Shown here: positions 18,566 to 62,049 of the stretch, in pieces
How positions within the stretch are numbered: the first letter of the stretch is position 1
How the letters are laid out: each line of letters begins with the position of its first letter
Assembly: GCA_051294905.1 (NCBI GenBank)
Contig: CM119372.1
Span: 40,302,001 to 40,366,000 of the forward strand
DNA: 64,000 nucleotides
Direction: 5' to 3'
Source: Botryllus schlosseri
Lineage: Eukaryota
Notes under the pieces: generated by a model
The model's database searches: none
Told to the model about the DNA's origin: nothing
The model's input: only the letters and a program-made list of their open reading frames with translations
Made by a program: the position numbers and the translations under genes

Positions 18566-18708
18566 CAAATAAAGGTGATGAAATCACATGGGCAATCGCC
18601 AACAAACAAATAACCTAAGAATGAAGGAAATGGGACAAATTCGAAATATTGACCGACCAAGCTCATTCGATTTTGCCATCCTACGATTGCCGACTGCAGA
18701 CTAACTAC

Positions 18709-19695: not shown

Positions 19696-22600
19696 CTAAC
19701 TACCTCTGAATAACTCGAAGTAAGAATTAATTTAATCCCGAAAAGCTTTTCCACTGATCCCCTCGTCATTAGCTAACGTCTGTAGCACGGCCATGAGAAT
19801 CAAATGAAAAGATCCTGGACAGAGTAAATGGGTACTGCGCTATAAAAAGGATATAATCCCAAATGAATATACGAAACCACCGTGGCTCCTAAGACAAATT
19901 CCTTCCTAATGTCAGCTGACTACTATCTCAAACTACCTGCCAGCCTTGACAAACTAGAGAATTTTAGTTGCCCAATTAGACTAAAAAGCGAAATTCCAGT
20001 AATCTAATACGAATCTAATTAGTTAAATGAATATTTCCTCTAATTATGATTGTGATCGAATGCGTGAAATGTTTATATGCTCTCATTTTAATTCTAATAT
20101 AATTTCTGTTTTTTTTTATACTACAGGATAATATATAGTGCGAAGCGAGCGAAGTTCGGTGTGCAGACATTTGTCATTCTCATGCTCACGAGAATGAACT
20201 CTGATTTGATATGAACTGAACTTGAACAATGTCCAAGTGTTTGAGAACAGTAATTCTAATCCTAATCTATTTTGAAAAACAACTGTATTGCTATCATTCC
20301 AATTTTAATCAATTTTCGAAAAGACTGTGTAGCTGTCATTCTAATTCCAATCTAATTTATAAAAGCTGAAAATATTCTAGTTGTCCAAGTCCATCCTCTG
20401 CTTGATCGCATCGAGAAAGTGACGCGTGACAAACATTTGGCGAATGGTTATGAAGTCACAGAAATAAGCTAGATCGCAAAGTAACAATCGTGAAAATCGT
20501 CTATCTGCAGTTTGAATACAGCGGAGTTTTGAAGAAGATGGCTTCTGTCACAATTATTTACAGCGCACCTTAACAACGTTTTGTTTCGAGCCTGGCTGAA
20601 TTTCTCTACCTCGCGTCGTTTGAATACTTGCCTCCACAGCGGTATGACTCGCTAATTGTTTAGATTCATACGCTCTGGAAATAATTTCCTTCAAACCGAA
20701 TTATTGCAACGTGGCTGTGCCGATCATCGCTGTTCGTAAAACAACACAGCAGCGATATTGAATCGTGACGCAAATGAACCATATAGTATTACTGGGTTTA
20801 CGTCACCAGTATCGATCTCCCGGTGTTTATTAAGCGACCGCTCTCGGGAAGGGTGTCTTTATTAAATCCAGCCTGATGGTTCCATAATAATACCACGACT
20901 GACGATATACGTACCGTACGTAGTTCTGTCGTGACCCGTCTAGGAAAACCTACCTACAGATACGAGGCTTTCTAAACGATAAAATCAGAAAAACACATGC
21001 TACTGTAGTAACGCTAAATGAAGGACAGACGGAAGCAATAATTACGAGTGTACAAGCGTAATGGATTTCCGCTGATACTTAATTCGAAGAAAATCAAAAC
21101 CACCTCATTTTATTTCAAACACCCGCCCCTCCTTATATTTCGGCTGGCTACGCGCCTGATCACTTGAATTTCTCACGGAGGAATTAGATCGAGATATTAT
21201 GTCGGCATCAATTTCAGTATCAGCTACTCGTCCATCCAGTACTGCAAACCAGTACTCCGGTCCCGGCTACAGGATGCCACAAATGACGCATAGGGCTTTA
21301 TAAGGAGGGTGTTGCAGAAGCAGTGAACACAAAATTTGCGTGATTTTTCTCGTGTTCGCTCGTACTGCGCGTGTACGTATAGGTCTACAATAACACCGTG
21401 TAATGATTTTGCGATTCGTTTGTCATGCAGACCTCGTGAAATCGATTGTCTCACTCAGCAGTTATTATCCGGTTAACCGGTTAGATAAATTCCAAATATA
21501 CGGATATATCAGTTATCCGGATAGTGAAATTATTGATATCTAAACTAACCCTAGCGTACATATAGCAAACGTAGGCACCTAACGGATACATGTAACATCA
21601 CATTCATTGCTGGACGATCATCACTAAAGATCTCAACCATAAGTTAAAAGGACGCTTCTTCAATATTAGATGTCAGCAACCGATGAATTGCAATACGTAG
21701 CTGACGCGGAATTGCGAACAGCTTTACCTAAAGAACATGTCCACTCACTTATTGATGTTCACCTACTGATATTTCAAACAGCGAAGACAAATTGAGGATT
21801 ACAAACGAATCTGCGATCGATGAAACATTTTTCGATCGATACCCACGAGCAGGATATGATCGTTGACGTATTCTGTCTAACTCTAAAGCAACTTACAAAT
21901 CTATGATCGATGCAACAATGATCGTGCGTGTCAATGCCAAAAGTGACATGTATATCACTACTTGACCGGTCTTTGTATTGGTAAGGTCACCAGTGAGTTA
22001 ACAGCACTTGGCCTCCCCTAATCGTAATCCGAACATGCGACTATGCTAATGCTTACTTCTAACCCTACCCGAACCCATACCGGTAACTCTAAGTCATAAC
22101 CCGAATACATTAATAAACATAATAACAAGTGCCGAATATCATAATTCACGTTCACATTCAGTGAAAAATGTACGTCCGAAAAACAATATTTATGCATTGC
22201 TTTCATGTTTCATCTAAAGGTAAATTCACCAAGTGCCGACTTGAACATGCTGAATTCACTTGCAACTATTGGTAAAACCCTCCAAGCTCGTAAACAGCGC
22301 TACTCATGGATAACAAACTCTTCTCCGCACTAAAAAGGTTCAGCGTGTCAGCGACACGCATAAAACAAAGACGCCCGTACTTCAAAATCTCGCAGTAAAC
22401 CGTTATTTACACCGATACCAGGCACCACATTCCTATCATACGACAAACAAGCGTCCGTCGTTAGCTTACGTGCCCGACGAAGTTGACACAAAGATGCCAC
22501 AGTCTTGTGACTCTGCGAAACGCAAACTTTTCAACTGATCCGACATGCATTACTGGCACTGATCGTCAACGCAAATGCAATCTACCTGTCTGGAAGACTT

Positions 22601-33667: not shown

Positions 33668-34656
33668 TTGTCGAAAGTTAGTTTTCAATGAGTACTCAGG
33701 GATATTTAGAGCTATCGTTTTACTGTATAATCATATGTCCTTACTACAACATCTACTGCGAGGCCATTTTTCTTCAGTGCCCCCATACCATACCCCTGAG
33801 TCCAGCGCCCCCCATTTCGCCCCCTGAGCGTTTCCGCCCCCTTCAAAATCCAAATGGTCCCCTGGGGGCGCTGGACACAAGGTTAAGAACCACTGTTTTA
33901 CATCATCCAGTGGTTGACCAGAAAATAGACTGAGAAAAAAAATGTCAACTTTCTGGCCCAGCTTCCGAAATAGCCGCCGGGGTGTTACTTCACTGCAAAT
34001 TCGATGTATCTCAGTCGAATTTTGCCCTATATAAAACCATAAGTCTCAAAAAAGAAAACATTTGGGCGTCCTCCGAGGACACTTTCAAAAAAGTCAAAAA
34101 AGAGGACAAATCCTCTTAAAAGAGAACGTATGTTATTCCGAAACCAGTGGTTCTTGACCTTTCCCCCAGCGCCCCCGAGTGGGAGATTTCGATTTTGAAG
34201 GGGCCGGAAACGCTCAGGGGGCGAAATAGGGGGATCTGCGCTCAGGGGGCCGGTATGAGGGACGCTGAAGAAAAATGGCCTCGAAGTAGATGGTGTACTA
34301 AGGACATATGATTATATAGTAGAACAATAGTTCTATATATCCCCGAGTTCTCATTGCAAACTAACATTCGCCAAAGACTACTCCAAGTCGTTTCGACACC
34401 TTACTATCTCTTCATTGTATCGCACTCTTGTGGTGTTTTGAAATGATGACATTCCGATACAGTACTTAACATTTTTCTGAATTCACTGTAATTACGTCTT
34501 ACGTAGCCTATGCATCTTCATTGTATCATTCGCAGTAAGCTAACAATTTAATGACCATTCTTATTATCCTGCTATTGTGTAATCATTCCCGGTTCCAACA
34601 GCTGCCGATTGACTATATCCGGATACTCCGGGATTACCTATCGTGATGCTGTAAGA

Positions 34657-35863
34657 CTGGGGTAGGCAAACTTTTTAACTCGCGGGCCGCATTCAACATT
34701 TGAAACCTTTCGCGGGTCGCACCATTAAAAATTAGGATACTATACGCCAAAATGCAATATTGTTATTTCATGATATAGTGACCGACGACATGGTAATAAT
34801 ATAGATGTATATTTGAAACAAGCCAAACATTGATTTGATGATAACATACACTCTTCAGGAGCATTGACGAGAATTTATAAGCTGGTCGTCCTCATTGTTA
34901 AAATTAGGCATGAAAGTCGGTTGTCCCGATTCGTACAACAGGACGCGAATTTGAGTCTGTGAGCAGCGATCTGTTCATAGATTTGCTGATTGTACTTTTT
35001 TCCAACTCCAGGACTCACAATGCTGACAGCATCATAACCACATTAACTTTAAATACGCTTCTACGATATCTATATATGATAAAGATAAACGTCTCTACAC
35101 ATACAAAGAACGAATCTATCTAACACACTAGGTAATTGGTTTTTTCAAGTACAGCACTAAAAGGAAAAAAACTTCCTAAAATTACACTCGTGGTCCGAAT
35201 TGAGTCATTTACGTCTCACTTTCTGTGATGCTTAGCAATTGAAACATTTAAAAATGCCAGGCCTCAAGGTCATGCTATCGCGACATCAATGAAATAAAAA
35301 AAATACTATGGTAAGAATATAGCTAATGATTACCATGTTGAAATATATTAAGAAAAATTTTAATCAAATACTCACACTAGTGCGGAGCGGATCGAAAAAT
35401 TCTCTGGTCCGACTCCGATCCGGCTTGCCCATTCTCTGGTCCGACTCCGGCCGTATCAGGAAACCTGATCGGGCTCCAATCCGCTTCGGCCCAAAATGAA
35501 AAAGTCCTGCCGGAAATCCGGCCCAACACGGTACGGTGGTTCCGTGAATTTCAAAATATGGCTCGTTTCTTTTCGCACTGGCTTGACGGTTACTTGCGCG
35601 TGGTTGGTGGGTGGCTATTTAGTTACAAACGTCATGCTTATCTATAAAGATTCTGGCATTATCAAAAAAGTACTGATCCGGCTCCGATCCGGCCGGATAT
35701 CCAATCTGACTCCGGTCCATGCTCCGCACTAACTCGCACCGACAGTAATTTGAATTTATTGCGCATTTATCAATATTTTTACGTTTCTTTAGGCTTTCGC
35801 GGGCCGCACTAAACGGCGTTGCGAGCCGGGTGCGGCCCGCGGGCCGTAGTTTGCCCACCCATG
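34657..35863. mobile_element. hAT Charlie/Buster-type MITE, inverted sibling of 62050-63182
   Basis: Ends CTGGGGTAGGCAAACT / AGTTTGCCCACCCATG, and the internal sequence matches the reverse complement of 62800-63180. TSD is degenerate. Confidence 0.75.
35378..35731. mobile_element. hAT MITE with TCCGA/TCCGG arrays
   Basis: TIR TAGTGCGGAGC, TSD ACTCACAC/ACTCGCAC. Confidence 0.85.
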
Positions 35864-38800
35864 CTCGAACACATCACAACAATCAACAATTGTCAACGAA
35901 AGCTGCATCACAAAATTGCGACCATGCGCTGGCAGCAATATGAATTGGAACTGCAACAAAACAGAACAGAACAGAAATACACTGTAAATCCGCAAGGTCG
36001 TATTGAACACTTCATGACACTTTTTTCTGCGTACAGACACACTTTTTGGGCATATAAACGCATTGGGCCATTATCGTCGCAACGCTTCTGCGTATTTCTC
36101 CGTTTACTTGTAACACTTCGTCACTGCGGCTTATTTTCAAGAAAATTTATACTTGGTAATTTATCATCAATTTTGCATTCATAAACCATCGCTACATTTG
36201 GAGATCACATTAAATCACGGTATATGTAAAATAATATTACTCACTTGACCCAACACTAAGTTTAAGGGTAATATTTCAATGAAATATACATATTTCCCTG
36301 TGACGCAGAGGGGTCACAACCTTCGTCGCGGTAGAGCGCGCTCGATTTCAGTTTGGATTTGAATTGGTGGTTCGTCAGGCTTCAGGCAGAGAGTAAGGTA
36401 CACGAAAAAACTTGGCGAAATGGATATATTGAAGCAGTTTCTGCTACCTGATGGCGTAAAGGATCATAAATTCCATGTACTGTAAGGTATGGAGATGCGG
36501 TAAATGTTATTGAATGTATGTAATGTGAGAATAGTCATAAAATTAACTCTTTTTGACATTGCAGTAACGTCGTTTGTTTTAGATGTTGTAGCAGGCTACT
36601 CATATCCCTTATTCATATGAATGTTCTTTAGATGTTTTGTAGTATATGATTCGTCTGATATTATTGCTGGATGATCGAGCTTCGAATCTGATAATATACC
36701 AGGCTGCGACCAGGTCCAGTAACGGTACTGATGGGAAGCTGCTATAAAATTAACTTTTTTGACATATGGATAAAGGGATGTTCTCTCTATCCACACTGAA
36801 ATATCACTATGTAGGCGATATTGTGGTCCATTGTAGACAAGTACTGCAATGTCAGCAATTGAATGCCGGTATGACAGTCATGCAACGGTTTTGATTGTTT
36901 TTCAACTGCAACACGTTTTACACTGTAGGCCTACTGTTTATTCCAAGTGGTAAGGTGTTAACTAAAGCGATTTTTGAAATGTCAAAATAGGTCAGAATTT
37001 TGTCAAAATTGTACCGTTAGGTCAAAAATTGCCAAAATTCTTCACAAAATCAAAATTTTGTTGGCAACTTGCATTTCGTTTGTATCATAGATGATTGCAC
37101 TGTCGGTGAACTTATCATTTTACAATTTACATCTTGTAGCCTACTTTATAGTCCTACCGTTGTAGACGGACCATCGTCTGCTCATTGTGAATCATAAACT
37201 GTCAAATGAAACAAATACTCAACGTAGCCTATTGCACTATCCTAACTGAAGCGAGACTGCGTGGGCATTGGTTCTTCGATTAAAAACCGTATGATGAATA
37301 CTTGCAATGTAGACAACTTTGTCATAATGAGAGAGAGAGTGCAGTGTACGCACAACTTCAGTGTTGCCGGCCAACAACTGCAGCTGGTGAACGTTCTTTC
37401 TTCATTCTTGCCAAGCTACTTAGTTAGGACAGACACTTTCTACCCGAAAATGTAGGAAAGTATCTTTCGTTGTACTACAACAAATTTTTAATTATTTCTA
37501 CCATAATACGAGATGTAACTAATACTAGAATTATTCATGGGTCCAGATTTCGATAAAATAAGTTCTTTTTCATGTAAAAATTTGTCAATTTTCATGCTAA
37601 AAGATTTTTTCAGATCAAATTACTTCGGAAGAACAGAGAGCTCCAGCCAGAAATAAAGATAAGTTCTGGTAATACAATTCTAACACTATGTGAGAAAAAC
37701 CTAATTTAAGTACATGGGGTCAAAATTAAGTTTTTCATCATCAAAATATGTGTGAAGTTGAATTTTTTAGTCAAAATCTTACCTTTTTAGGTCCAAAAAA
37801 TCGCCCCAATAATAGCACAGCCAAACAAACAATCTTTTCAACAAACCATGGATCACAAGGGGTAGTATTTGTTTTGCCCAATCCCCAAATTTGACTTTTC
37901 TGAGTTTATTGTGATACGGTAACTGAACTAAACTCTATTTTGCAGGTAGTATGTATTGAACTTGGCACCTTTTTGAAATGCATTTGCTGTATGGAATACT
38001 GGTAAGCATCACGTTGTTTTGTAAGTGAACTGGTATATCCTTAGAGAATGAATTTGATTCTGTTGCAATCGGTTATCTTTGTGATAAAGATTTTTATGAA
38101 AGTTTACTGGTGAAATTTCACAAAAATTGTTAACAATCCAGGAAGTATACTAACTGTGCCAGAGTAAAATTGGTGGTAACGTCATGTGCAACTTTCCATT
38201 CCATTACTCAATTATTCTATGAAATACACCCTTCTGTCACGCACAACTTATTGCAGAAAAAAAAACTGTATCCAGTATGATATCTGCGTGATTACTGAGC
38301 AGTTCAATTGAATTGCGAAATTTTGCAACAAATATTTTCTTTTCAATAGTCTTGGATTGATCCTCAAATTCGTTCAACTGATGTCCACTCTTTAAAAAGA
38401 GCCCCCTGGGTCTACCGTGCCTGCGCTATCAGACAATGTTGACAGTGACGTGAGGAGTCGTTCGTAACGGGTTTTGTGCCGGCACAGTCATCTTATGTGA
38501 TACAGACCTTTGTCTCAAGAGCACATGGATACATGTGATTATGTAAGCCTATTTTCTCATTTTATATATCACCATTGATTATGTAATTTGCTGGTTTTTG
38601 CAGTCCTACTTTTCTCACGAACTATCTCGCAGAGTAGCTTACGGGCTATTCGATATGAGCTGAAAAAGGCTTCATCTGTGTACACTGCACAGTAAAGTGT
38701 ATCCTGAACTGTTTACACTGAACAGAGATGTAGTTAAACGTAATGAGCTCGTGTAACTTGTACTTTAACTATTGCTTACTGAACTATAATGGGCTAGGTC

Positions 38801-39929
38801 AGTGGTTCTCAACCTGGGGGGCTGAGCACCTCTCCTGCGCTTCTGTAACCTATCTGTGTGAAATATTTATATTTACTTCTGCATCAAATTTACAATTTTC
38901 CTTTGTAATGTTTCGTATTTTCTAGGAGCAGCATTTGGATTTGACCAGTAAAAAAAAGATCCGCCATGGCACGCCACGAATCAGGGACTCATCAAGCCTG
39001 GGTTGCGGCTGATGGAAAGAATATGAAAAATACCCTAATGTGCAGGTAGTATGTATTGCAATTGGCACCTTCTTGAAATGCATTTGTTGTTTTAAATACT
39101 GGTAAGCATCGCGGTATTTCGTAAGTAAACTGGTATATCCTTAGATAATGAATTTGATTCTGCTGCATTTGGTTATTTTTATGAATGTTTGCTGGTAAAA
39201 TTCCACTAAAATGATTAACAATCCAGGAAAGTATGCTACTCGTGCTGTAGTAAAATTGGTGGTACGGTCACATGCAACTTTCCATTACAATAATTATTTG
39301 TTCTATGAAAGACACCCTTTTGTCACATACAAATGTATCCAGTGTGATATCTGCGTAATACTGAATGCCGGTGACGTGATATTTTGTGATACGATTGTTG
39401 ATGTACAACGTTCTTTCGAGTTCTCTACTAGTTACTGACGATTACCCCTGACGAGTCTCAGCCGAAAATATTCGGGCTCATTTCAATATGCATATACTAT
39501 TCAATTTTATATTGAAGTTTGGCACCTCGGAGAAGCTGTTCGAATATTGAATAGTTCCCTTGTATTGCAAATTTTTGAAACAAGTATTTTCTTTTCAACA
39601 GTCTTGGATTGATCTTCAAATTCATCCAACTGGTGTCGACTCTTCGAAGAGACCCCCTGGTTCTACCGTGCGTGTGCTAACAGACAATGTTGATAGTGAC
39701 GTGAGGAGTCATCTGAACGGATTTTGTGCCGGTGCAGTCATCTTTTGCGATAATACTTTTGCCTCAAGAACCCATGGAAACATGTGATCATGTAAGTCTA
39801 TTTACTCATTTCATATATCACCATTGATCATGTAATGTGCTGGTTTTTGCAGTCCTAATTTTCTTAATAACTATCTATATATGCGATATGAGCTGAAGAG
39901 AGGCTTGATCTGTGTACATTGAACAGAGG

Positions 39930-41531
39930 CAGGGCTGTGGAGTCGGTGGAGTCGGAGTCGGGGTAATTTTCGCTTGATAGAGTCGGAGTCGTGAAAACTA
40001 TAATAGCTGGAGTCGGAGTCGGTGGGAAAATACTGACTGGAGTCGGAGTCGGAGTTTGTGAGAATGACTATGACTTCGACTCCGACTCCAACTTCTCTAT
40101 CATGAAAACATTTGCTTTCAAAGAATTTTCAATATAATTTTTATGTACCACCAACCACTGTTATTATTAACCATACATGCAGATCAGGTGCGGCCAGCCC
40201 GTGGCACGAAGGCCAAATTTGGCACACGAGAAGGTTAGGTGTGGCCTGCGAGGTAATTCTCGAAATTATTTATGACATCAGGTACAATCGCAAGGCCAAC
40301 CAAAATTTGATTAGCATGACCGCGAAATTTGATGATGACTAAAACAACAGTTCTGACGCATTGACGTATCCAGGGGCCAGCTACATTTATCCCAGATCTT
40401 CGTATATGACCATGAAGTAGAATATTTCATAGCAGATTTATTGGACTTGAAATTTTTCTCGGTACTTCGCATGATTCATTGTCACTAGATTTCTTGCATT
40501 CAGTATTTGAGCCCACTTCTGAAAATTATAAATACGTATTATTCACAGAATTGAGTCTAACTGTATTCGCAATTAGGAGATACGGCTTCGCTTGTGCACT
40601 CGCAGCGAGATCGTCGACAAAACATTTGCACAAAATGATAGAGGCATGTTCACTGATAATATCGATTTTGCTATGTCTAAAAGTCGAATAATCCTGTCCT
40701 TGCCAAATGAGCCCAGTGATATACAGATGCGACCCCCAATGTATGATAGCGACATATTTCTTGATATAGCTATAGCCTAATTCAGTCGTTATCTTGCAAA
40801 AAATTTTCGCGCGAGTGCTCCCCACTTGACAAAATTAAAAATATTTGTAGTGTAGCTTAGCTGTTTGGGTCGAACAAATGATTAAGAAAGACTGCAAGTC
40901 CCAATCCTTGAATACTTGATTAAGTACATGCAGACTAGACATAGGCTATGGTCTTTGACTACTTAACTAAATTCCATTTCTGACCAATGTCTATTGTTAG
41001 CAGTAAGACTGTATGTGCTTGTAATCAGGATAGTGTGCAATGACAAAATTAGTAAGTTCAATTTCTTTATTAGTTGCTGAGTCATACGTAAGAGCTACAC
41101 TTGGATTTTTTATCTACATTTTTATTAAACAGGATTAGATATCTGCCATATTTGAATGATTCATACATTTCAGGATATTAGAGAGTCCATGTTATAAAAA
41201 CTTGAATAAGGAAGGATATTTAGCAAATCTTTATTTCATGTTAATTGCAAGTGGATAATTCGAGTTGTGCCACAATGAAACAATTTAGCATGCCACAGTT
41301 AATCATATGTTTGCATATGTTTAATGGTTGTATGATAGTCATTCAACCGACAATGTGGCATATGATTTTCGAAGTAAATTGGTAATAATGCTGGAGTCGG
41401 AGTCGGTACGTTTAAAGACCCAGGAGTCGGAGTCGGTACGTTTAAGAACTCAGGAGTCGGAGTCGGTATATTGAAAATGTGTGGAGTCGGAGCCGGAGCC
41501 GGTGGTAAAATTTACCGACTCCACAGCCCTG
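39930..41531. mobile_element. hAT MITE with GGAGTC arrays
   Basis: Perfect 18-bp TIR CAGGGCTGTGGAGTCGGT, perfect TSD AACAGAGG, empty paralogous site at ~38721. Confidence 0.95.
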
Positions 41532-41634
41532 AACAGAGGTGTTGTTGAATGTAAAGAGCTGGGGTAACTTGTATTTAAACTACTGCTTACTGATCTATAC
41601 TTGGAACATCAAATTGAGATCATTTCCCATTTCG

Positions 41635-43160
41635 TGCTAATTCCAAATAATTTTGTTAATTAAATTTAATCTGGAAGGAAGTATTTTGAAAGATTGAGAA
41701 CAATTACAATTACTGCAATGAAGGAAAAGTATTCAACACCTTCGATAAGATGTCACAAAGTCTTTACTAAAGACAATCAATGTGTCCTTTGTCTGGTCAA
41801 TTATTGTAATGGAAATCCAAACCCATAGGAATAACGATTCTACTATATTTATTTTCGGATCTTGTTTGCAATCAATTACATTTTCAGCAAAACGAGGTTG
41901 ATGAAGTCAACTGTCTTCTTCTCCAAGCCAAATTGAGAGACAAGCAAATACAATCCAAGACCCAAGCGCATGTCTTATTGAAACAGGTATCGTAATCTTT
42001 CTGTTTTGTGGACCATACAAATATACATAGACCGTTCGTAGACGTACATAGACGTTGTGCTATAAATTTCATCCTGAGTTACAGTTCTGCATTCTCACTG
42101 TGGCCTGTGCGTCTGAATGTCAATGTAAATGTCAAAATGGCCGAATTGAAAAAAGCCCGGACCTAATTCAAGATATTTTTATTAGTCGTTATGCGAATTT
42201 TAGTCCTTCTCAGTGATAGGATTTCACATGTACCCGAGCGCCTTTCCTGCGCTTGTGCAACCTGCATGTGTAAAATATTTATATTTATTTCTGCATAAAA
42301 TTTAGAATTTTCATTGACATATTCAAAACTTTGGAATTTAATCACATTTTCAAGGAGCACAACTTGGAGTCGACCAGTAGAAAAGAAGCAAACACCATGC
42401 TAATTCCAAATAATTTCGTTAATTAAATTTAATCAGGAAGGAAGTATTTTGAAAGATTGAGAACAATTACAATTACTGCAATGAAGGAAAAGTATTCAAC
42501 ACCTTCGATAAGATGTCACAAAGTCTTTACTAAAGACAATCAATGTGTCCTTTGTCTGGTCAATTATTGTAATGGAAATCCAAATCCATAGGAATAACGA
42601 TTCTACTATATTTATTTTCGGATCTTGTTTGCAATCAATTACATTTTCAGCAAAACGAGGTTGATGAAGTCAACTGTCTTCTTCTCCAAGCCAAATTGAG
42701 AGACAAGCAAATACAATCCAAGACCCAAGCGCATGTCTTATTGAAACAGGTATCGTAATCTTTCTGTTTTGTGGACCATACAAATATACATAGACCGTTC
42801 GTAGACGTACATAGACGTTCTGCTATAAATTTCATCCTGAGTTACAGTTCTGCATTCTCACTGTGGCCTGTGCGTCTGAATGTCAATGTAAATGTCAAAA
42901 TGGCCGAATTGAAAAAAGCGCGGACCTAATTCAAGATATTTTTATTAGTCGTTATGCGAATTTTAGTTCTTCTCAGTGATAGCATTTCACATGTACTTGA
43001 GCGCCTTTCCTGCGCTTGTGTAACCTGCATGTGTGAAATATTTATATTTATTTCTGCATAAAATTTAGAATTTTCATTGACATATTCAAAACTTTGGAAT
43101 TTAATCACATTTTCAGGGAGCACAACTTGGAGTCGACCAGTAGAAAAGAAGCAAACATCA
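41635..43160 (+). repeat. Recent 763-bp head-to-tail tandem duplication
   Basis: 41635-42397 versus 42398-43160, about a dozen substitutions by eye. ORF-track twins at 41884 and 42647 are offset by 763. Confidence 0.95.
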
Positions 43161-44474
43161 TGGCACGCCACGAATCAGAGATTGACCGATCCTGGATTGT
43201 AGCTGATGCCAAGAATATAAAACTGCTTCAGTGAAAATGAAGTATTCAGAAACATTGTTGACGTTTTGAGCTACTATGCATTGGATTGTCATACCCTGAA
43301 GGAGTGGTTCTCAAACAGGAGAAAGCATTTGAAGGGGCGTGAACCCGCTGTCAACTAAAATCTTGTTCGCACATGGCAGCTTCTACTTATTTCTCTGTGT
43401 ATGGTCAGAATTTAATATTTGAATATTCTCTCATCAACAACTATTACCGTCACTGCCATCCAACTATCAGTTGGGATTTTTAGCGTTCTGGTTGCTTTTT
43501 TTAATTTCATGATACGACGATAAGGGGTGTGTGAATTTTTTTTGCTATCATAACGGGGCGTGTCCAAATATGTTCATGAACCAGTGCCCTAATGACTTCC
43601 AGATTTCATATTTTGCAGCAGACTGGCAAATAACAACAAAATCTTTTCTGTAAATCTGCAAAATTTGTATGGACTGAAAGAAACGATTTCTTTGTTATTT
43701 AAACAAAAGTGATTGGCATTAACCTGATATAAATCCTTGTAATGCAAGCCCAAGAATATTTTTGATGCATGGTTAGCAGGCCCAATTTCATTAAGAGTAA
43801 AAAAATACTTTGTTACTTGTTTATCGTGGTAGTGGTAGTGAAACTGATATATTCATTGTTTGTTTTTTTACAATAAAATTAGAAATTTACAAGCCATAAT
43901 TTGATCAATTATAAATATGTTTTAATGATTTGTGTTGATCATGTTTTCCGTTAACGGATGTAACCAATGAATTTGAATCCATGCCATTGTCACGAAAGTT
44001 GAAGATACTAAATGATATTTTGTTATCACTATCCCTAATTCCCTATGCATTCATTTTCATGATTGAACGAGTTGCATGATATTTGTAGTGAGTTTGCTCT
44101 TGATCATTTGTGATGTTCGTGATTTCATGGACTATTCCGGAAACGGTTTCAACTGCTGATCTGAATTTATGAAACCCTGTCACAGCAGCTATTGGAAATT
44201 TCAATGTTTGCACGTATTTAATCACCCAGGTTGGGTATTATAAGCGTCATCTATTCATGAATCAATAAAATCTGATTTTATTTTGAGCCCTGCGTTCCGG
44301 TGACTAGTCAACCAGCCACTTTGAGGCTGAACACTTTTTAGGTAAACACTTTTAATTTAAACACTTCGCAACACTTCTAGGCGTTCAATTTTTGGATCAC
44401 GTTTCGTGTTCAATTTTCCGTGTTGAGCAACACTTCAGAATTTACAGTGTAGGCCTATATTTGGTGGTATGACG

Positions 44475-45303
44475 CAGGGTTGGGATGACTAGAGTTACCT
44501 TTTTCGAATGATTTGACTTGACTCGAGTCACTTCGCAAAAATGGCTTGACTCGAATTGACTCGACTCTTCAAAAATTCAGATTGACTCGGGAGTCGAAGA
44601 AAAATTGACGAGTCAATTTCAAGTCATCAAGTAGGCTAATCGATATCGACGAAATTGCTGTATCTTGTATAGTTTCGGATTGCTAACCAATTACCCAATG
44701 ATTGTGCGTTTTACGGAGCCTCCATTGGTAATCACAAAAAATTGATCGCAAACGCAGTAACCGGAGCTTACAGTTTACATTGTCGTAATCTTGATCACCT
44801 TAACTAGGCCTTTTGTAGAATTTTAATCGAACGAATATTGCTCATACGTTTATATAATTGCATATCATTGATATGTACGCTGGTATTATGGTATTGCACC
44901 ATAACATTTTTTTTACTTTCTAAGGCTTCGCACGTTATCCTGTATTTTGGCTGATAAATTATAGACTGAGGGTATATACCGCTATACTCGCGTAGTATAG
45001 CCGTCCTACGTATGCGTGAGTGATACAGCACTTTTTTGCGTGAATAATCAACTCTTCATTCGTTCCACGATTCAGAATAAATGGGGACTTCATCAGTATT
45101 TAAAACAGTTAGCAAAATGCAATGACTTTGAATCATGCCTCGTACTGTGAGAACTCAACTTGAATAGATAGTGACTTGACTCGCGACTTGACTTGACACG
45201 AGTCAACTCCAAAAATCGAGTTACTTGACTTGACTCGAGTCAAAGTATGCATTGTGTAGACATTAACTTGTGACTCGACGGTAGTGACTTGATCCCAATA
45301 CTG
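44475..45303. mobile_element. hAT MITE with GACTTGACTC/GAGTC arrays
   Basis: TIR CAGGGTTGGGAT / ATCCCAATACTG (10/12), TSD GTATGACG/GTATGATG. Confidence 0.8.
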
Positions 45304-45550
45304 GTATGATGGGTTCTCCTTCAAACTACTTCACTACTCTGAGATGAAGTTTCGGTGATGGTTGTGCAAAGACTGAAAAATTCAATGCAATGGACCGAAG
45401 CACCGGACGTCGAATTATTGGATAAGTCAGAGTTACCTTTTACGATCCGTGACTGTTGACATGAGTCGCAGCCCCTTTCAATCAACTAGGCCAAGGCTGT
45501 CAGACTCAAATTGGGTCGCGGGCCGGATTCAAAAGTTTTGATTGTTTTGA

Positions 45551-46500
45551 TTGATGATTTGTAGTAAAGTCAAACTTGATTCTGAATTGGAGAACATTCG
45601 GTCAATCTTTCAGTCAAATGGTTATCCTGATCATATCATTAAAATAACCATGGATCGTAAACTCAAAGATTTCAGAAAACTTAAACCGTTTGGACCTAGA
45701 AAATGTCTTGTTTATTTGCATCTTCCTTGGATTGGGAAAGTGTCCAACAGGTTTGAAAAACAATTTAAATCGTCAGTGAGGCATTGTTTTTCACAAGTAG
45801 AACCTCAGATAATCTTCATGACGAAATCTCTGATGCCTGCAACACAAAAGGATGTGCTACCTGCGACAAATCAAAGCAACATAATATATGAATACACGTG
45901 CCGATGTGACAGTCGGTATGTAGGTCGCACGTCTCAGCGCTTGCAGCAAAGAATTCGCCAGCATGTCCCACGGCAAATTAGAATAACTAATGTTTCTCCT
46001 ACTCCTTCATCGCAGTCTGTTGACACAATGCGTGATTATGATCAAGTTACTGCTTGTAATTCGGCTATTGGACAGCATTTCTTATCCCATCCAGAACGTG
46101 CTGATCATTAGAATGACAGCCAATTTTCTAAACTTGCTCGTGGCCGTTCTCTTTTTCATTTAAAGGTCCTGGAATCTACGATCATAAAGCTACGAAAGCC
46201 GATTCTCTGTCGCCAGAAGGAACGCCTCTACACTCTTGGAATATTTCATTAATGTTATGTGTTGTGTTTTCGGTTATTTGTAACCGAATATGTACTCGTT
46301 AACGTTTGTTTTGTACCGTTGGCGTTACTGCCGTATCTTGCTCGACTACTAGTTGTTTGTTTTTGTTATTATTACGTCATACAAACAAAATAGTTCTTAC
46401 ATTTCGAATTTGATTCACCCTATCACTGACGTTTCGCTACTGATGAGGGTCAGTCGAAAAGCTTTTAGCGAATAAATTAACAATATGAAGTTATTGTTTC
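45551..46500 (+). mobile_element. 5'-truncated Penelope-like retroelement (RT C-terminal region plus GIY-YIG endonuclease plus 3' tail)
   Basis: ELENIRSIFQSNGYP...LPWIG...IIYEYTCRCDSRYVGRTSQRLQQRIRQH...SAIGQH. One premature TAG at 46109-46111, then the frame continues to ...LESTIIKLRKPILCRQKE...* at ~46251. Hammerhead and AATAAA lie downstream. Ends are approximate. Confidence 0.9.
46433..46472 (+). ncRNA. Minimal type I hammerhead ribozyme
   Basis: Stem I TTCGCTA/TAGCGAA (7 bp), core CTGATGA, short stem II G-GGTCAGT-C, GAAA, palindromic stem III AAGCTT and a UUU cleavage triplet. It lies in the tail of a Penelope-like element, where such minimal hammerheads are known. Confidence 0.8.
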
Positions 46501-46628
46501 GCGTTATTAACGCTATGCAGAATGAAATATATCACGGATCATGTGGTCTCTGTTCGAGTAACACCGTTATTCTAAACAATGGAATTGGCAAAAACACCGT
46601 GGTTGGCCGATTGAATGCAGTCAACCAC

Positions 46629-48110
46629 CAATGTTCCCTTTAATTTTTCACGAGTCTGCGCAAATACGCCAACTCACTGCGCAGGCCCCTGAACAACAGT
46701 GCGCAACCAGGCCCCCCATGGGATAATAAACCTAACTTCTGGGGGGCTTCGCCCCCCGGACCCCCCTTAGGCTACGCGCTTTTTACCGCTACTAGTCATC
46801 TATGTCCGGTATTTGTTTAGTGGTGTTACGACTAAACGCGCGCAGCGCGAAAATTTTCTATTATTCATGATCAAATCGGTAAATATCATCGGGAATTGCA
46901 TATATTGCTGTCAATTTTAATCCTGTCTTTGCTCACGTAATCACATTTACAGGTAAAGCTGATCGAGTGAGAAAAGGTAAGACCCCTAAATATAATTAAA
47001 CATCTTCGGGCGTACCCGTTGGTATGACTTCCTTACATCATGCTATTTCGTGACCTCCTATCTGCTATGCCAAAAGATATTTAAATCTGGACATAAGTCA
47101 CTTTGATTCCACTGCGACGATATGGTGACATACTACGGATTACTAGAAGACAGACATACACGCACGAGAATGCACTTGAAATCAATACATGCGATCGATG
47201 TAGGCCTATCGCGTTAAAACACTGATGTGACGTCTTAATACCGGCAATGCACTCATTACTATCAAGATATAATATACGAATATATAATGATACGATATAT
47301 AATGACACGAATATTCAAGTCTGATTGAAGCAAGAACAAGATCAGCGTATGACCTTATCGACAGAAGATACCCGTTCAAACGAATCGAATAAAATCACAA
47401 ATTTGTGCTGCTGAGAAGCTGAAGGCACGAAGTGCACAGTGCATATAATTGCTGCATTTCCGATCAACGTTTGCCAAGGGATGGATTTTTTCAACAATAT
47501 TGGTGCTTGTACTTGCATATTCTGCATATTATCCTATATCACCATACGTGATCAGATTCGCCTGAAGGAAGTGATGACTTCGAAAATTCGCAGCATGTAA
47601 TTGTACAGTAAATCTTACACAATATTCATGCCACGCGGAGAAGACTATTCGTTAGTATCTCGCAGTTAATTTCGAGCTAGCCCATTGTTATTTATAACTT
47701 TGTTAAACCATGTTACTTCGCCATTCCCACAAAGGATTGCGCTATTGATATGATATCAGTATCGCTCACACATACGATACCATAATAAAAGAAAAATCTC
47801 TTTCTTGAGTCGCACTCGATTGCAAATTCTCATTGCTTCGCGGAACGCAATATTTGCCTTTTCGGGCCGCACTTGTAGGCCTACCTCGGTTTCAGACTTC
47901 AGCGATAGCACTATTCACCCCTGGCAATGTTCCCTCTCATTTTTCTCGAGTCTGAGCGCCTGCGCAGTGCTTTGGACAAGAGTGCGTATGCGCAACGATT
48001 AAGAAAAAATCATCACTTCGGATTTTTTGTGCGCAGCCTGGATTTTCTGTGCGCAGAGACCGTTTCAGCACTGCGCATTTGCGAACGTGCGCAGCTTAGA
48101 GGGAATATTG
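46629..48110. mobile_element. Composite CAATGTTCCC-family hAT element
   Basis: TIRs CAATGTTCCCTTTAA / TTAGAGGGAATATTG, perfect TSD TCAACCAC, second internal left end at 47925. Confidence 0.85.
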
Positions 48111-48922
48111 TCAACCACCGAATCTGTGGCTCTGGAGCCGATATAAGTTGAAGCACCCTTGTTTCAGTCGTGATGTGTTGTTCGCCCGGAGCATTAGTGC
48201 TGAGGAATACAAGATATTGTAAATGCTGACGTTGGAATTTTGTTCAATATTTTTATATCGCCAATTCAACATTCGAGTTTCTCTGCAGACCGAGGTGTGC
48301 TGGGCTGCAGTGCGACTAAGGATATTGCAATTATATTATTCGTGTAGCTAACAAATTCCACACGTATTTAACATATACAGCGGTTGGGCATTGGCGATTT
48401 CGCCTCCGTTTATAATTATTATTTAGTCCATTTTTTCACAAAACTCTCAGGTGTGAATTTTTTCGCCTTCTCAGAATGTAGCGACAATGTCACCGACATG
48501 TAGTTGATGGGTATTTGAGTAAGAACACAACACCGTCGACAGGTGGTCATAATTTGGCCTATGAAAATGTTCGATATGTGCGGTCTTGACAAAGTAGAAA
48601 TGTGCTGGATAATACATAAATTTTCAATTTACTCAAAATTGGCATGCGGGCTGGAAGAAACTGTCTGGCAAGCCGTATGTTTGATACTCCTCAACTAGGC
48701 GATTCAGGTATTATTCTATAGCGCCGTCCTGCGGTGTTGGTAATAGGAAGCCTTTACATATTATTAATTTCCAGCAATAAAGGCTGAGAAAGAGTTTCCT
48801 AGCCAAACAGATTGTTAAATTTTTGAATTCGAATTAATAGACTTAAATTTACGAAGCTCCTGTCTTAGTTAGTGGTAGTGACTAGTAGCCTACCAGATAC
48901 TCTCATGCAACAGTTTGCATAG

Positions 48923-49191: not shown

Positions 49192-52100
49192 TCACATAAC
49201 ATAGTCATTAAACCGTGAGGGCATTTGTCTGCTACGGCCGGGCAGGACGCTCGGTATCTCTTCCGACACAGCGATGACGGTCTCACCGACTGAATCGTCC
49301 TCCAGAGCTGGAAGTGATTCAACATCATCCACGTAAGGATGTAAATTATCCATATGCACAATGCGATATCGTTCGGAGTCCACTTGTTTTATCCGATAGA
49401 GGAATTGTTCAATTCGCTCTGACACAACCCATGGGCCGGTCCTCAATTTTGACTTCGCGGGTGGATGGAAATACCAGCACAAGGTACCAGTTTCCAGAAT
49501 CAAGGGTTTAACAGATGGATCGAAGTTTCTAGACTGGCGGATAGCAGACTTACTCAGTGGCTCACGGGCATACGCAAAAGCATCTGTACTAGCAATGTCA
49601 AACCACTTGACAAACTCAGTATAACAACGATAGGCAGTGTTGCATGGCAGTTTACCGAACATGATATCAACAGGAAGGGATATCTCTCTTCCTAAAAACA
49701 AACGATTAGGGGTATAACCAGTAGATGCATGCACTGATGACCTGTAAGCCATGGATAAATAAGGTAAATGTTCATCCCAGTTGTCTTGGGCACTGTTCAC
49801 AAAACTTTTGAGCATTTGCAGATAAACCCGATTGTTCCTTTCTGTGAGCCCGTCTGATCTAGGGTGATAGGGAGTAGTGCGAGTTTTATCAATATCAAAT
49901 AGCATACACATTTGCTTAAAAAGGTCAGATTCAAATTGTACACCCTGGTCCGTATGGATTATAGACGGCGCACCAAATCTGGTGAAAATTTCAGTCACAA
50001 GTACATCTGCAGCAGAAGCAGCCAACAAGTTTTTCAACGGGATTGCTTCTACCCATTTTGAGAAGTAGTCAGTACATACCATAATGTACTTATAACCCGA
50101 TTCCGTCTCATTCAAGGGACCCATGAAATCAATAGAAATTCTGTCAAATGGCTCAGCACATAACATTTTCTGCAAATTAGCCTTGTGACCTCCATGAGGA
50201 GTTTTCGATTTGGTACACACAGAACAGTATTTAATCCAACTTTCAGCGTCACGTTTCATTCCAGGCCAATACACCCTATCTCTCAATTTCTTATAAGTAC
50301 GATCACGGCCCAAATGACCTGCTATTCGCAATGCATGAAACTGGTGAAAAATATCCTTACGAACCGAAAGAGGCAGGACTAATTGAAATATTGGTTTACC
50401 CCCAGGATTAGAATGCACAAATTCACGATAAAGTACCCCATTTCGCAGACTGATGAGTCGCCATTGCGAACACAAGTCCCGGACCTGTTTTTGCTGAAAC
50501 AGAAGTTCAGTCCCAGAAGGTCTACAATCTCTTGTTTCCTTCATTGAAATGACTGTTTTCAAGTCCTTGTCTTTCATCTGCAGCTCCTTCAAATTTTCTT
50601 CAGTGTATGACCGCAACCAGTTTGACAAATCAGGTCTTGTAGATGCAGATTCGGCAGCAACCTGCTCCAAACTTCCTACGATGACCGCAGCACATCTTGT
50701 TGCTGGAGGTTCCGCCAAGTCACAACAGTCCGAGCATTCCTCTCGCTCACAGCGTCTACGGTACTTCCTGGAAAGACCATCAGCATTCCCATGCAACACG
50801 CCCGGACGATGTTCTACTGTATAATCATAGCTGCTCAGAAACGCAATCCATCTTGCCACCAAGGGACCATGGGGTTCGCTCGAAGTGAGAAGCCAACGCA
50901 ATGAAGAATGATCAGTCCTCAGAATAAATGGTCTCCCCCAAAGGTAATGCCGGAAATGCTCAATTGCCCATCTTGCAGCATAAAGCTCTCGATATGTAGC
51001 ACAGTAATTCCTCTGTGATTTGTTGAGAGTAGTACTTGCATAAGCGATTACCCTCTCAAGACCCTCTTGCTTCTGTGAGAGAACCGCACCCACACCAAAA
51101 GCTCTGCAATCAGTGTCAAGAATGAACACTTCACCATCTTCACGTGGGTAAGACAGTATCGGAGATTTTGTCAATAACTCCTTCAAGGTGTCAAACGCAT
51201 TTTAGCATTGATCGTCCCAGTTAAAAGGCACATTCTTCATTGTCAGATGTGTCAGTGGGTAAGCGATGGACGCGAATGACTTCACATACTGCCGATAATA
51301 GTTTGCGGTGCCCAGGAAAGCCTGGAGATCTTTCAACTTCCCAGGAACCGGCCAGTCACGAATCGACGATATCTTTGTCTCACTGCAGCTAACCCCTTTG
51401 TCTGAAATTTCATGGCCAAGATATTGTACACGTCTTTGGAACAACCTGCATTTAGTTGGTTTGAACTTTAGTCCCGCCGAGCGTATCCTGGAGAAAACGT
51501 GTCGAAGGTTCTCCATTTCGTGCTCAAACATTTTTCCGAAAACCATAACATCATCCAGGAAAACCAGAGCTCGCGACCATAATACATCAGCAAGAACTTT
51601 CTCCATCAATCTCTGAAACAGAGCTGGCGAATTTGCCAATCCCATGGGAAGTACTGTAAATTGGTAATGGTTATGACCTGGAACACTGAAGGCTGTTTTG
51701 GAGCGATCCTTAGGATCAATTGTGACTTGGAAAAAACCGCTTGCCAAGTCCAGACATGAAAACCACGAGGCTCCTCCCAACGAATCCAAAATATCTTCAA
51801 TTCGAGGTAATGAGTACGCATCTTTGACCGTTACGCTATTCAGTTTTCTGTAATCCAGAACAATTCTCCAGGAATTATCTTTTTTAGGAACCAGCATAAT
51901 TGATGCATTGAAAGGTGAATCAGACTCCTCTATCACGTTCTGTGCTCTCAGCTTTTCCACTTCTTGAATAGCCAACTTGCGTTTCTCCCAGCCTATGCGC
52001 CGAGGACGTACTTTGACAGGCTGCTTTGTGGTGAGAGTGATTCTATGCTGCAAAACTTGCGTCTGTCCGAGTTTCCCATCCGGCCCAATGAAAACATCCT

Positions 52101-53072
52101 GGAATTCAGTCAAGAGATCCCGCACTGCAGACTACTGCTCCTCCGTTAAGTTCTGAACCCCATCTAACATGGAACTCAGATGACCTGGAAATTCTCCCGT
52201 TTGCAATTTCGATTCTTCACCTAAATAGTACTTCGCTTCACCCGGGGGCACCTCTTCATCTTCACTCTTCCTTATACTGGCAATGCCGGAAACTCTTCCA
52301 TGTACATCCTGGAAGTTGTCTGCAGGGCAAATCATGCCAACAAAAGTGCCAGAGGGTATCTCAACCACACAATCTGAATCATTTACAACCAGAACTGGCA
52401 CCGAACATTCTGATGCGGTAACGAAAGCAGGACACACATACACTCCCGACTTATTCTGTGCCCACGAAAAATCCCTGACTGGCTCAACTACAGCCGTAAC
52501 TCCCTTAACATCCACTGGCCAAGGGTGGTTATTCTCTCCAGTCACACATAATTGACTGTGAGCGGGGACCAAAATTGATTCCCTAATGTTTATACGGCTG
52601 CACGTGACATTATTGGAACTCATTAATTGAACCGAGTCATCACCCACTTGCAGTACTCTACGTCTGGCATACAAGGTGACATCAACTCCTTCAGAGCATC
52701 CATACCCAAAATACCAATTTTCGCTCCGAGCTCAGCCACAAACACTCGCATCCTCACACAAACTTTATTTATACACAACTTGAGTGTGCAACTTCCATGC
52801 ACTACTAGGGGTCTGCCATTAGCCACTTTAAATCGATTGTCATCCGGACTCGATTCTAGCTCACCGACATCAATAAACTCCCGTAACCCAGAATCTATGA
52901 ATGTTACCGGACTACCGGTATCTACCAAAAATTTATAATCTGCCCTGGCAATACTAACAAGTGTGTACCAGTTGGTTGAAACATTGAGGGAGCAAATCAA
53001 GTTATCCAGATCATCATCAACTGTATTACAAGCGGGGTTACTGGTTTCGCACCCCGCTACTGCGAGTTTAAA
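49192..53072 (-). pseudogene. pol: Gypsy pol (protease, RT, RNase H, integrase), disrupted
   Basis: Protease FLVDTGS; RT LDLASGFFQ, PMGLANSPA, FLDD; RNase H LDTD, RELYA, TDH; integrase H-H-C-C and D,D,E (IDF, TDQG, TERNN). Frameshift near 52670 and in-frame stops at 52132-52134 and 51202-51204. Confidence 0.95.
53031..53072 (-). promoter_or_regulatory. -1 programmed ribosomal frameshift signal at gag/pol overlap
   Basis: U UUA AAC in the gag frame (53072-53066), a 7-nt spacer, then an 8-bp stem AGCGGGGT/ACCCCGCT with a 12-nt loop. A -1 shift enters the protease frame (FKLAVAG). Confidence 0.85.
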
Positions 53073-54441
53073 CGACCGTTCCAATTTCCATTATTATCCA
53101 TAGTTGGCTGAGGTTGAGGGAAATATTGTGTTTGCGCATTGGGCCCATGCTGCCATGAACTATTCTGATTGGAATATTGACATTGATAATCATATTGCCC
53201 TGCATTTCGACAAAGTGGACAAAAGGGTGCCCTACAGAAACGTGCAGAATGACCAGACTTGCCACACCTGAAGCATTTACCAAAGAATTTTGACTTGGGA
53301 CTTTCACGGTTTCTAATTGGTGAATTCGGACGACTCGCATTATTGTCTGGGACATGATTTTTATTAAATAACTCGGTCAGCTCAGTTCTCAATCACTTAA
53401 TCTGGTTTTGCAATTCACCAATACATTCATCACATTCTGATTTTGAGTTCAAGTCAGCCTTGTGGGTAGGGTTGTTAACGACTGCCACATAAGGTTTTAT
53501 TGTACCTGCATTGGCCCCATGAGTAGCAGCCATTGACTCATAGTTTTCGGCAGCACGAACTAACTCCTCTAAACTGTCACTCTCACGCACAGCAAGCATA
53601 CCACACAGTGTGACATCAGAGAACCCCTGACAAAATTGTTGACGTACCAGTAACTCTGCAGCATTACCGTTTATCATCTTGTAGCCTTTACGTACCAATT
53701 CTCGGAGAGCAGCAGCAAATGCAGCAGGGGTCTCATTCGGCTTTTTCCTTCGGCAGTTGAACTTAGTTCTGTAGTTTTGTCCTGATTGCTCCTTCCCAAA
53801 ACGTTTTCTGAGGTGCTCCACTATTATGTCGAAGTTTTGGGAATCCTCGGCAGAAACCTCCTTGGCGTACTTTAGCGCGGGACCTTCCAGGCTCCAGCCT
53901 AAATATGAAAGAATTTCACGTACACCCCAAGATGGGTTGCAGCCAACAACATACTCAAAGTGGCTTAGATGGTCTTCAACGTAACGTCCGTTGTTCCACT
54001 GAACTTATTATTAGGTAGAACATTTGGCGTTTTCGATTCCAGATAAATAGGCTTACCAGGCACTGGTATTTCAGTTGATTTCTTGCTGCTCGAAAATATG
54101 GTATCGTTGGAATTTATGCCATCCGGAACAGAAACACATGGACGATCAACACTGCCCTTGTCGTCAGAACTAGTCTGTCCCGGTACAGTACGTTGCATTT
54201 CTCTAATTAGCGAAAGAATCCTGGTCTCCCACGCCTGCATTTTTCGGTCGATCATCTCTTCGACAGCAAGTAGAATTTTTTATGAGATGCGCTCAATCTG
54301 TCCCGATACTCTACTTTCGGTGTTGGTCATTCTCAGTTCGAGGTATTCAATTTTCGTTCGCAGCACTTCTAGTTGATGCGACTCGATCTCTTCTTCGATC
54401 TGTCTGGCCTCGGAAATTAACGACTGAGGTGAACTATCCAT
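53057..54441 (-). pseudogene. gag: Gypsy gag, disrupted
   Basis: ATG at 54441 just after the PBS. In-frame stops at 54280-54282 and 53393-53395. A 5-bp duplication AACGT (53978-53987) shifts the frame; removing it restores KFSGTTDVEDHLSHFEYV...SLEGPA...HLRKRFG. CCHC knuckle CFRCGKSGHSARFC plus a degenerate second knuckle. Confidence 0.9.
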
Positions 54442-59726: not shown

Positions 59727-62049
59727 ATAGTACAAAGCTACTTACGTAGGTAGAAATGACATGTCTGTGAAGTCGAGATCAACCCACAGCATTGCACAAA
59801 GTAACGCTTACTACTCGATTCGGGATCGAATCACTTAGCTACTCGATTGTATCCAGCCCCTAGACTAGTAGGAAATCAAAACAAATCAATAAAAAAGTAT
59901 TACGTATGGAACGACATTTTTATTTGATTTCAGTCACATGTAATGTGAATGATATCCTTACGATGAAGTGGATGATTCGCGAGGTCTTACAAAAGGATAC
60001 AGGATTTTGTTGGTACTGAAATACATTATGCTGAAAGATATGGCCTCTCTATTATAACAGATTGATGTAATCCGTAGAAATCACTCGCGACTGGCGAAGG
60101 TCGCAGCTTGATACCGGGCTGGAATTTGATTACGATCGAGCCGTTGGCATTTGCGCCCACTTCCATCGGAACAGACAAGATTCGCATTTGTAGATGTAGT
60201 GCAGAAATTTACAGGAAACGAAAGGTTTTGATGATTACATATCGATTTAAATTGAAGTTTTGAATTTCATTTCTCGCGGACTGACGGGAGATGATCAAGT
60301 TGCATGTCCATGGGGATTCGAAATCGAAAGAGACCAATTTTGTAATGTGAGATTCTGTATGAAGCCTCTGCTCAGGTCATGTTTTCAGATAGTTCTCAGG
60401 CAGGGCTAACGAATCCGCGTAACTGTCCGATTCGATTCTAAATCGAGTATGCAGCTTCGAGTTTATTTGTGTGTTTGAGCATCACTCGTTATGATGCCAT
60501 AAGAATATATTAGGCTTGGTATTTTCTAATATGTACCTTCAATGCGACCAAATAATGGTGTATGTTGCGATGGTCTGTCGGTTGATCACAACTTCACAGG
60601 TATGTCACTTGCGCTGACGTGCGTAGAATTGTCCTACATGTTTCGTATGCTGGGATAGATTAATCGTGATTTCGTGATAGACGAATCGATCATTAGGGAA
60701 GAGAGTATCGAAACTATAATCCCCGTTGATAAATATAGTCTTAACTGAAAGGCACTCATTCTTTCAGTAGGCCTACTCGACAGAATCATATCTGACTACT
60801 CGACTAGAATTGTGGCAATTCATATTCGAGTAAGATTCGAGTATTCAAATCATTGTCCCCAGTCATATTCTTAGACGGTGCCGGCATTCAATACACACTA
60901 AGCAGTGCGTCGAGCCTGTGATGTAAATTGGTAAATTCAATTTCACAGCCAGCAGTCTGCTCAGTATTTTCAAACCATGTGTTCTCTCATCTACTGAGGG
61001 CCTTTCCCAGGTTTGGTACATTCTCGTTGTTAACTGGTAACCGGAACGTATAATTCACCTTGAACAGTCAGGAAAACAGGATGAAAACTAGTGCCAATGA
61101 CATGCACAAGATTGAATCAAATCTGCTCATAAAACGATGTCCTAACTGTATTTGTAATCATGGTATGCATAAATTGACAAAATTACGGCTTAAAGATTGC
61201 TTTCATTCAGATAATTTCATAATTCATATATTATTTTTCCTGGCTCACGAATCCTGGATACTTATTTCTGGATAGTTCGTGCGTCTGAAATGTCGGGGTT
61301 TTGGAATTTTGGCAATGTGGTTTAAACTTGAGCTTGAGTTCTGACAGGGGTTTGGAGAGATATTCAATTGTTCATGCCCGAGCTGGTATGGAAACCTCTT
61401 TAAGGAAACACCAAACCAAATTGCGTTAATAGGAAGAGTTGAGATGACGATGCAGCTTCATTGATCGTATTTGTTTGGAATTATATCACATTTTCACAGT
61501 AGTACTCTTTCGGATTATATAACAGAAGAATATATTTTGTTGTCGGCAAGACTGGAGCTTCACGTTAGTTCAATGAAATAGGTATTGGAAATTGGGAAAC
61601 AGCTTTTTGTGTAAGATGTTTATTGTAAGCCATCTCGCTAGTGCCGGGTGAAAACGCCGAAGAGTTATCGATTAACTCGAGTCCGTTGCTAGCGATGAAA
61701 AGCCTGACGTCGATGATGTGGCGACTTACAGGCAAAATATTGATCGCGAATTTATGGTAATTTGTAGCTGTCAATGGCAGGTGGAAACGTGAAGATGTCC
61801 GAGATTTCGAAGTTCATTGTTCACCAGAGGCGCGGAGTGTTGTTTTGGACCAAGATTTTGTTATACTTAAGTATTCAGGTAGACGAAATCGATGATATTT
61901 GCATCACTTTATCTCTCATCATCTGCTGCAGCATTTTCTAAAAACAATTGTTTAGTTCGCCCACTTTCACTATATAATCCAGCTTTGAAATCCAATTATC
62001 TCTGGGCTAGAAAAGATGAAGAACCTGGATGACACGTTTCTAATTAGAG

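Follow-up and report, generated by a model that had tools for sequence, protein, structure and literature searches.

Analysis of a stretch of 64,000 nucleotides of the Botryllus schlosseri genome (contig CM119372.1 of assembly GCA_051294905.1, positions 40,302,001 to 40,366,000; hereafter the window, numbered from its first letter) points to a single transposable element at 35980-44449, which, with a probability of about 0.82, is one non-autonomous, high-copy element of the CMC/EnSpm (CACTA) type, present here as a recently inserted copy. That this block forms one non-autonomous element had been the core of an original prediction made from the sequence alone, and it is supported by the ends, by a motif clustered at both ends and by a contig depth that is about the same at the ends and in the interior.

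Ends, target-site duplication and subterminal motifs

The left junction (35978-35989) reads TA followed by CACTGTAAAT and the right junction (44440-44451) reads ATTTACAGTG followed by TA, which bears out the termini and the TA duplication at the predicted coordinates. Within the window CACTGTAAAT occurs once per strand, starting at 35980 on the + strand and ending at 44449 on the - strand; the inverted repeat is perfect over 10 nt and matches at 14 of the first 17 positions, and the TA on either side is a target-site duplication (TSD) of 2 bp in the single copy examined. CACTG is a terminus of animal EnSpm elements. Short inverted repeats with a CAC or CACT start are a feature of CMC-EnSpm elements, and CMCT lineages have CA..TG ends and TSDs of 2-5 bp (PMC12730594), while TSDs of 2 bp are described for animal CACTA elements (PMC1636069; PMC13189230). 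Regarding the present element, CACTGTAAAT provides such a start at both ends, the TA pair is a TSD within the 2-3 bp of the CMC-EnSpm type, and subterminal repeat clusters, likewise typical, are formed at both ends by the motif RACACTT. The features of the element as a whole and of its ends are as follows (strand given where assigned).

35980-44449: whole element, 8470 bp, non-autonomous, member of a high-copy family (from the ends and from contig depth, which is evenly high across the 13 bins of the backbone)
35978-35979: left TSD, TA (sequence; identical letters at 44450-44451)
35980-35996, + strand: terminal inverted repeat of the left end, CACTGTAAAT, perfect over 10 nt and matching at 14/17 (sequence)
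35997-36130, + strand: left subterminal region with RACACTT at 36006, 36016 and 36112 (motif scan)
44300-44432, + strand: right subterminal region with RACACTT at 44330, 44345, 44360, 44370 and 44429 (motif scan)
44410 and 44424: two inverted RACAC in the right subterminal region (motif scan)
44433-44449, - strand: right terminal inverted repeat (sequence)
44450-44451: right TSD, TA (sequence)

Eight of the 19 occurrences of RACACTT in the window fall within the two terminal 150-bp stretches (three left, five right), with an expectation of 0.045 per 150 bp and a single occurrence in the 8.2-kb interior. The motif was picked post hoc, after inspection, and its clustering is the strong part of the end evidence. 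The shorter motifs ACACT and GTGTT, of which five to seven had been claimed for each end, reach that number at the right end (five ACACT, two GTGTT) and not at the left, where there are four ACACT and no + strand GTGTT.

Contig depth and copy number

Part of the stretch is contained in 20 of 24 public sequencing runs, and the contigs of four runs were aligned to 34800-45800, with backbone depth taken as the summed contig depth over the 13 bins without nested repeats. The median backbone depth was 23,067 in run X1 and 25,156 in run X4 (range 16,536-50,795), the terminal bins had 0.95-1.63 times the interior median in X1, X4 and X8, and even at single interior positions with 4-5 contigs the depth in X4 was 11,889-19,880; contigs of the flanks with 0-1 mismatches had depths of 42.2 (X4, 35665-35977) and 10.2 (X1, 44698-44891). 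Ends and interior have been multiplied together, to roughly the order of hundreds of copies, a claim limited to that order because summed contig depth is not copy number and the single-copy baseline consists of two contigs only. This pattern, in which the interior equals the ends in abundance, speaks against single-copy DNA lying between two short elements.

Against the window, the eight X8 pieces listed for 36472-44409 show 36 differences in 2478 letters and are read either as the consensus of the family or as near copies; in both cases the element has relatives about 98.5% identical along its whole length. A gene called on a public contig, P0001, has 149 of 156 residues identical to 39365-39832 and is thus a second copy or an allele with the same nested insertion at 39365-39540. 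Other public contigs join 39919 to 41530, 38788 to 41604 or 42383 to 38961 and represent family variants without parts of the interior.

A candidate for the empty site is one contig of X4 (record 10, 389 nt, depth 42.2), which matches 35665-35977 and continues with 77 letters that do not align there. An empty allele would share only the TA with both sides of the element, and the aligner places cuts leftmost, as seen at the joint of 39919 with 41530, where 10 letters are shared; a contig of the empty allele is therefore predicted to end at 35977, exactly where this one does. A contig of the filled allele should continue into the element, and a polymorphic insertion is probable.

Apart from the limit on depth given above, several points count against a single element of this type. 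[quoted passage not shown] The ends on their own are weak evidence: when the window was shuffled by dinucleotides, an inverted 10-nt pair headed by CACT[AG] together with a 2-bp TSD arose in 19 of 200 trials. The same count speaks for a very improbable alternative, that the CACTG ends are two separate short elements or chance, with an independent repeat or segmental duplication as the interior between them. In other copies, ends and interior were not directly seen joined to each other, and the other such pair in the window (46675-47969) is merely internal to a larger hAT-like element; however, two separate ends sit poorly with one motif clustered at both and nearly absent from between them, with a terminal depth close to the interior depth rather than far higher, and with a low-depth contig that stops following the window precisely at the left boundary of the element.

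A single TA duplication also cannot tell a random 2-bp TSD from TA specificity, and the element could have been moved by a TA-specific transposase (Tc1/mariner-like, or of a CMCT lineage, for instance ESTA) and not by EnSpm proper, which we consider improbable. Some fish Tc1-like elements begin with TA followed by CACT; Tc1/mariner elements are, however, usually much shorter and have longer repeats. The inverted repeat of 10-17 bp, the subterminal arrays and the length of 8.5 kb fit CACTA/EnSpm, and in a search for a remnant of a DD(34)E/D Tc1/mariner transposase only HTH_48 was matched, below the cut-off (E=0.014) and over the end of a nested MITE. On the side of TA specificity, the lone TSD seen is TA, and EnSpm-like TA-specific lineages occur in fungi (PMC12730594).

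Nested repeats and duplications in the interior

Within the preferred CMC/EnSpm-type element, nested repeats take up about 2,800 of 8,470 bp (about 33%, with approximate bounds). The description of the block as AT-rich holds in that its GC content is lower than that of the rest of the window (36.9% vs 41.0%), a difference that is only mild, and both duplications that had been placed inside the element, the unit of about 1.1 kb and the tandem pair of 763 bp, are indeed there.

37002-37735: nested high-copy repeat or repeats (depth 5-20 times backbone in X1 and X4; bounds are those of depth bins)
37916-39024, + strand: internal duplication unit A, with exon-like Cys-rich pieces without detectable homology (83% identical to unit B)
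39016-43222, + strand: unit B of the internal duplication, lengthened by the 763-bp tandem pair and by insertions nested in it (alignment)
39365-39540: nested short, very high-copy repeat, SINE-like (short interspersed nuclear element) or MITE-like (missing from unit A; highest depth bin)
39930-41531: nested 1.6-kb non-autonomous element, presumably hAT-like (18-bp perfect inverted repeats, 8-bp TSD AACAGAGG)
41635-43160, + strand: tandem duplication of recent origin, two copies of 763 bp at 98.3% identity (13 mismatches in 763)
43302-43586: older nested insertion, which we take to be hAT-MITE-like (degenerate 8-bp TSD, 6/8; 70% match at 11997-12168)

The older duplication (A, 37916-39024, against B, 39016-43218) has 874 of 1053 aligned bases identical, and the two units diverge evenly, at about 81-91% identity over the longer blocks, with no conserved exons apparent; one X8 piece (38737-39071) crosses the junction between them. 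Further matches to the repeat at 39365-39540, which is also present in the P0001 copy, lie at 18449 and 55567 of the window, and the joint that skips the nested 1.6-kb element was seen in X1, X4 and X24. Each copy of the 763-bp pair contains an exon-like stretch (41888-41989 and 42651-42752), neither of which gave a protein match. The joints of 38788 with 41604 and of 42383 with 38961 show that family members vary in their internal duplication structure. At 38800-38830 there is a lone CAGTGGTTCTC end of a hAT-like MITE, at the place where unit A lacks about 630 bp of unit B (41605-42235), as if an element had inserted here and a deletion had then removed sequence on one side; the first of these two joints coincides with this region.

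Coding content and transcription

The claim that the element has no recognisable transposase agrees with the searches: among 126 stop-free frames of the element no Pfam match was above the cut-off (six frames had sub-threshold matches only, E 0.0075-0.048), nor among 18 read-through frames (two with sub-threshold matches), and protein searches, which like profile searches are weak for short decayed exons, gave no homologue of a host gene or transposase, the only match being P0001, another copy of the block. An autonomous EnSpm/CACTA element was considered and rejected, as no frame of either set matched the Pfam family Transposase_21. Rfam gave 0 matches in 34000-48500, ARAGORN found 0 genes, the exact 35-nt subterminal pattern had 0 matches in viral and 0 in metagenome contigs, and a query with P0001, which is a spurious gene call, found no related locus among 78 candidate stretches.

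Features that may belong to a gene were nevertheless noted on the + strand, among them the following two.

36420-36481, + strand: candidate first exon of a decayed gene, with ATG, 21 codons and a donor-like site GTAAGG (sequence)
44264-44269, + strand: AATAAA, the sole one in the last 550 bp and possibly the poly(A) signal of a + strand transcript

Exon-like stretches lie at 37946-38001, 38350-38542 and 41888-41989 on the + strand, there are 29 donor-like motifs on the + strand against 8 on the - strand, and T is in excess over A. Taken together, the exon-like stretch with ATG, the other exon-like stretches, the donor bias, the T-over-A skew and the lone AATAAA suggest, from sequence features, a decayed spliced + strand gene that may have been the element's own. 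This is weakened by the donor bias having been counted with post-hoc motifs in partly duplicated DNA, by acceptor-like motifs without strand bias (13 vs 12), by the even divergence of units A and B, and by a candidate stretch at the 3' end with 0 matches in 1.84 billion proteins, itself a weak test.

Candidate identities for single pieces were rejected. The candidate first exon at 36420-36481, with a possible resemblance to a SAM domain, had no Pfam match and only chance PDB matches (E at least 0.74), a SAMD3-like helper remnant, which is the 3' candidate just mentioned, had 0 matches in that search of 1.84 billion proteins, and a PHD-like piece had 0 matches in the PDB. An Atlas match of 42085-42213 (best 0.85, unnamed, low recognition) was treated as noise, and a homeodomain-like WFSNRR near 43300 is a spurious translation of the left end of the nested MITE at 43302-43586.

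Regarding transcription, no RNA run was among those listed as containing part of the stretch, and about 6% of the RNA run X24 was read; 97% of aligned reads continue unlike the window and 61 of 3368 are at 99% or more. Backbone depth was 0-8, with no splice joint among the 15 listed, and the run is informative on expression in neither direction. Over 43608-44341 the X24 depth was 4-8, with both mate orientations and with family-consensus letters at 43676 and 43959. This may reflect transcription of some copy of the element, or read-through out of host introns.

Possible capture of host DNA

The element had also been proposed as a Pack-CACTA-like cargo carrier, which the analysis does not uphold. 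Pack elements are defined by host-derived interiors (PMC6379663), and homology of the interior to recognisable host genes, by which both Pack-CACTA and Pack-TIR (terminal inverted repeat) elements are recognised, was not found in the searches made; about a third of the element is nested repeats, and duplications are of its own interior. It is unlikely that this is a true multicopy Pack-CACTA, with CACTG ends that long ago captured a piece of a multi-exon host gene, which was then duplicated, decayed and spread to hundreds of copies. The exon-like + strand stretches and the donor bias would suit such a history, as would Cys/His-rich frames that resemble PHD-finger fragments by eye. Against it, none of the 126 and 18 frames matches a Pfam family above the cut-off, the protein, PDB and Atlas searches gave no homologue beyond the other copy of the block, the evenly diverging units A and B show no sign of conserved exons, and multicopy Pack-TIRs are rare in animals (4 of 370), with small captured pieces (PMC8277862). 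That the backbone comes from a host gene with several exons, a segment of which CACTG ends captured and carried to hundreds of sites, with the insertion still polymorphic, is doubtful to much the same degree; if true, the element would be an animal Pack-CACTA of several kb and high copy number, well outside the range of the Pack-TIRs surveyed in 100 animal genomes, which are small and almost invariably single-copy.

Proposed origin and mechanism

Judged by its anatomy and by what is known of CMC/EnSpm elements, the element would depend on a transposase supplied in trans by an autonomous relative at another place in the genome. This transposase would bind at the CACTG ends, the RACACTT arrays being putative binding sites for it or for a helper protein, and the whole block would be excised and reinserted with a 2-nt stagger by cut and paste. 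A separate helper that binds subterminal arrays would be an analogy only, because TnpA-like proteins are reported as restricted to flowering plants (preprint 10.64898/2026.08.24.746577). The interior would be passive ballast, free to gather insertions and duplications because movement needs only the ends, and the element may have grown by the old 1.1-kb duplication, several nested transposons and the recent 763-bp duplication. For the backbone itself, the preferred origin, at about even odds, is a gene with introns that belonged to the element and has since decayed; non-genic debris is distinctly less likely and old captured host DNA rather unlikely.

Surroundings in the window

The left flank (35370-35870) is made up of MITE-like repeats, one of which (35766-35869) matches 62044-62151, and only about 110 bp of unique sequence precede the left end of the element. 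Further upstream (1-35979), none of 130 frames of at least 62 residues had a Pfam match at E 0.001, and no host gene was identified there. On the other side, 25 bp from the right end, there is a hAT-like MITE (44475-45303) with a TSD matching at 7 of 8 positions, most of the interior of which is skipped by many contigs (44531 joined to 45211-45214). It is followed by a fragment of a Penelope-like retroelement (45551-46450), with high depth in X1 and X4 and a frame of 186 residues that matches GIY-YIG weakly, slightly short of the cut-off (E=0.00056). At 46629-48110 lies a 1.5-kb element, which we take to be hAT-like, with imperfect inverted ends and an 8-bp TSD TCAACCAC; it contains the second CACTG pair of the window, an inverted pair of CACTGCGCAG at 46675-47969 flanked by CT, which mimics a CACTA element and was rejected because it lies inside the hAT-like one. 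A Gypsy-like long terminal repeat retrotransposon occupies 49192-54004 on the - strand, with gag- and pol-like frames, so labelled from their translation, broken by single stops.

Comparison with known systems

The element is an ordinary representative of a known transposon type, without a recognisable captured host gene. No published description of its family was found in the literature, repeat databases lying outside the search. For annotation, the 8.5-kb repeat family is best masked as one unit; gene callers can be misled by its nested elements and exon-like pieces, as the spurious call P0001 illustrates. If the copy estimate is right in its order, the family takes up megabases of the genome and probably gives rise to insertion polymorphism. 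Only the discovery of a host parental locus would raise the importance of the element, as TIR transposons have rarely been seen to carry captured genes in multiple copies in animals.

Pack-CACTA elements of Arabidopsis are likewise non-autonomous, with CACTA-type ends and interiors without transposase, but their interiors trace to host genes and their TSD is 3 bp, whereas here no host source was found and the TSD is 2 bp (PMC6379663). The animal Pack-TIRs are also TIR transposons with non-transposase interiors; in the 370 cases described, 87% are of hAT or Tc1/mariner type, the median captured size is 224 bp and only four are multicopy, with a parental locus identified for each, in contrast to the multi-kb, high-copy Botryllus element, for which none was identified (PMC8277862).

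Close in description is Spongebob_HMa (EnSpm-4N1_HM) of Hydra, an element of the CACTA superfamily and like the present element multi-kb (5,836 bp) and high-copy (441 copies), with a 2-bp TSD and no readable transposase (PMC4298943). The likeness is one of description; its ends are of CCC type and not CACTG, and the nested elements and internal duplications of the Botryllus element set the two apart (PMC4298943). The zebrafish elements EnSpm-N49 and N49B share with the Botryllus element a CACT-headed short inverted repeat (15 bp), a 2-bp TSD and a non-autonomous nature; they differ in their length (2.5 kb against 8.5 kb), in their 72 copies and in having a known autonomous partner, and they are described as polymorphic between strains and moved in trans (PMC13189230).

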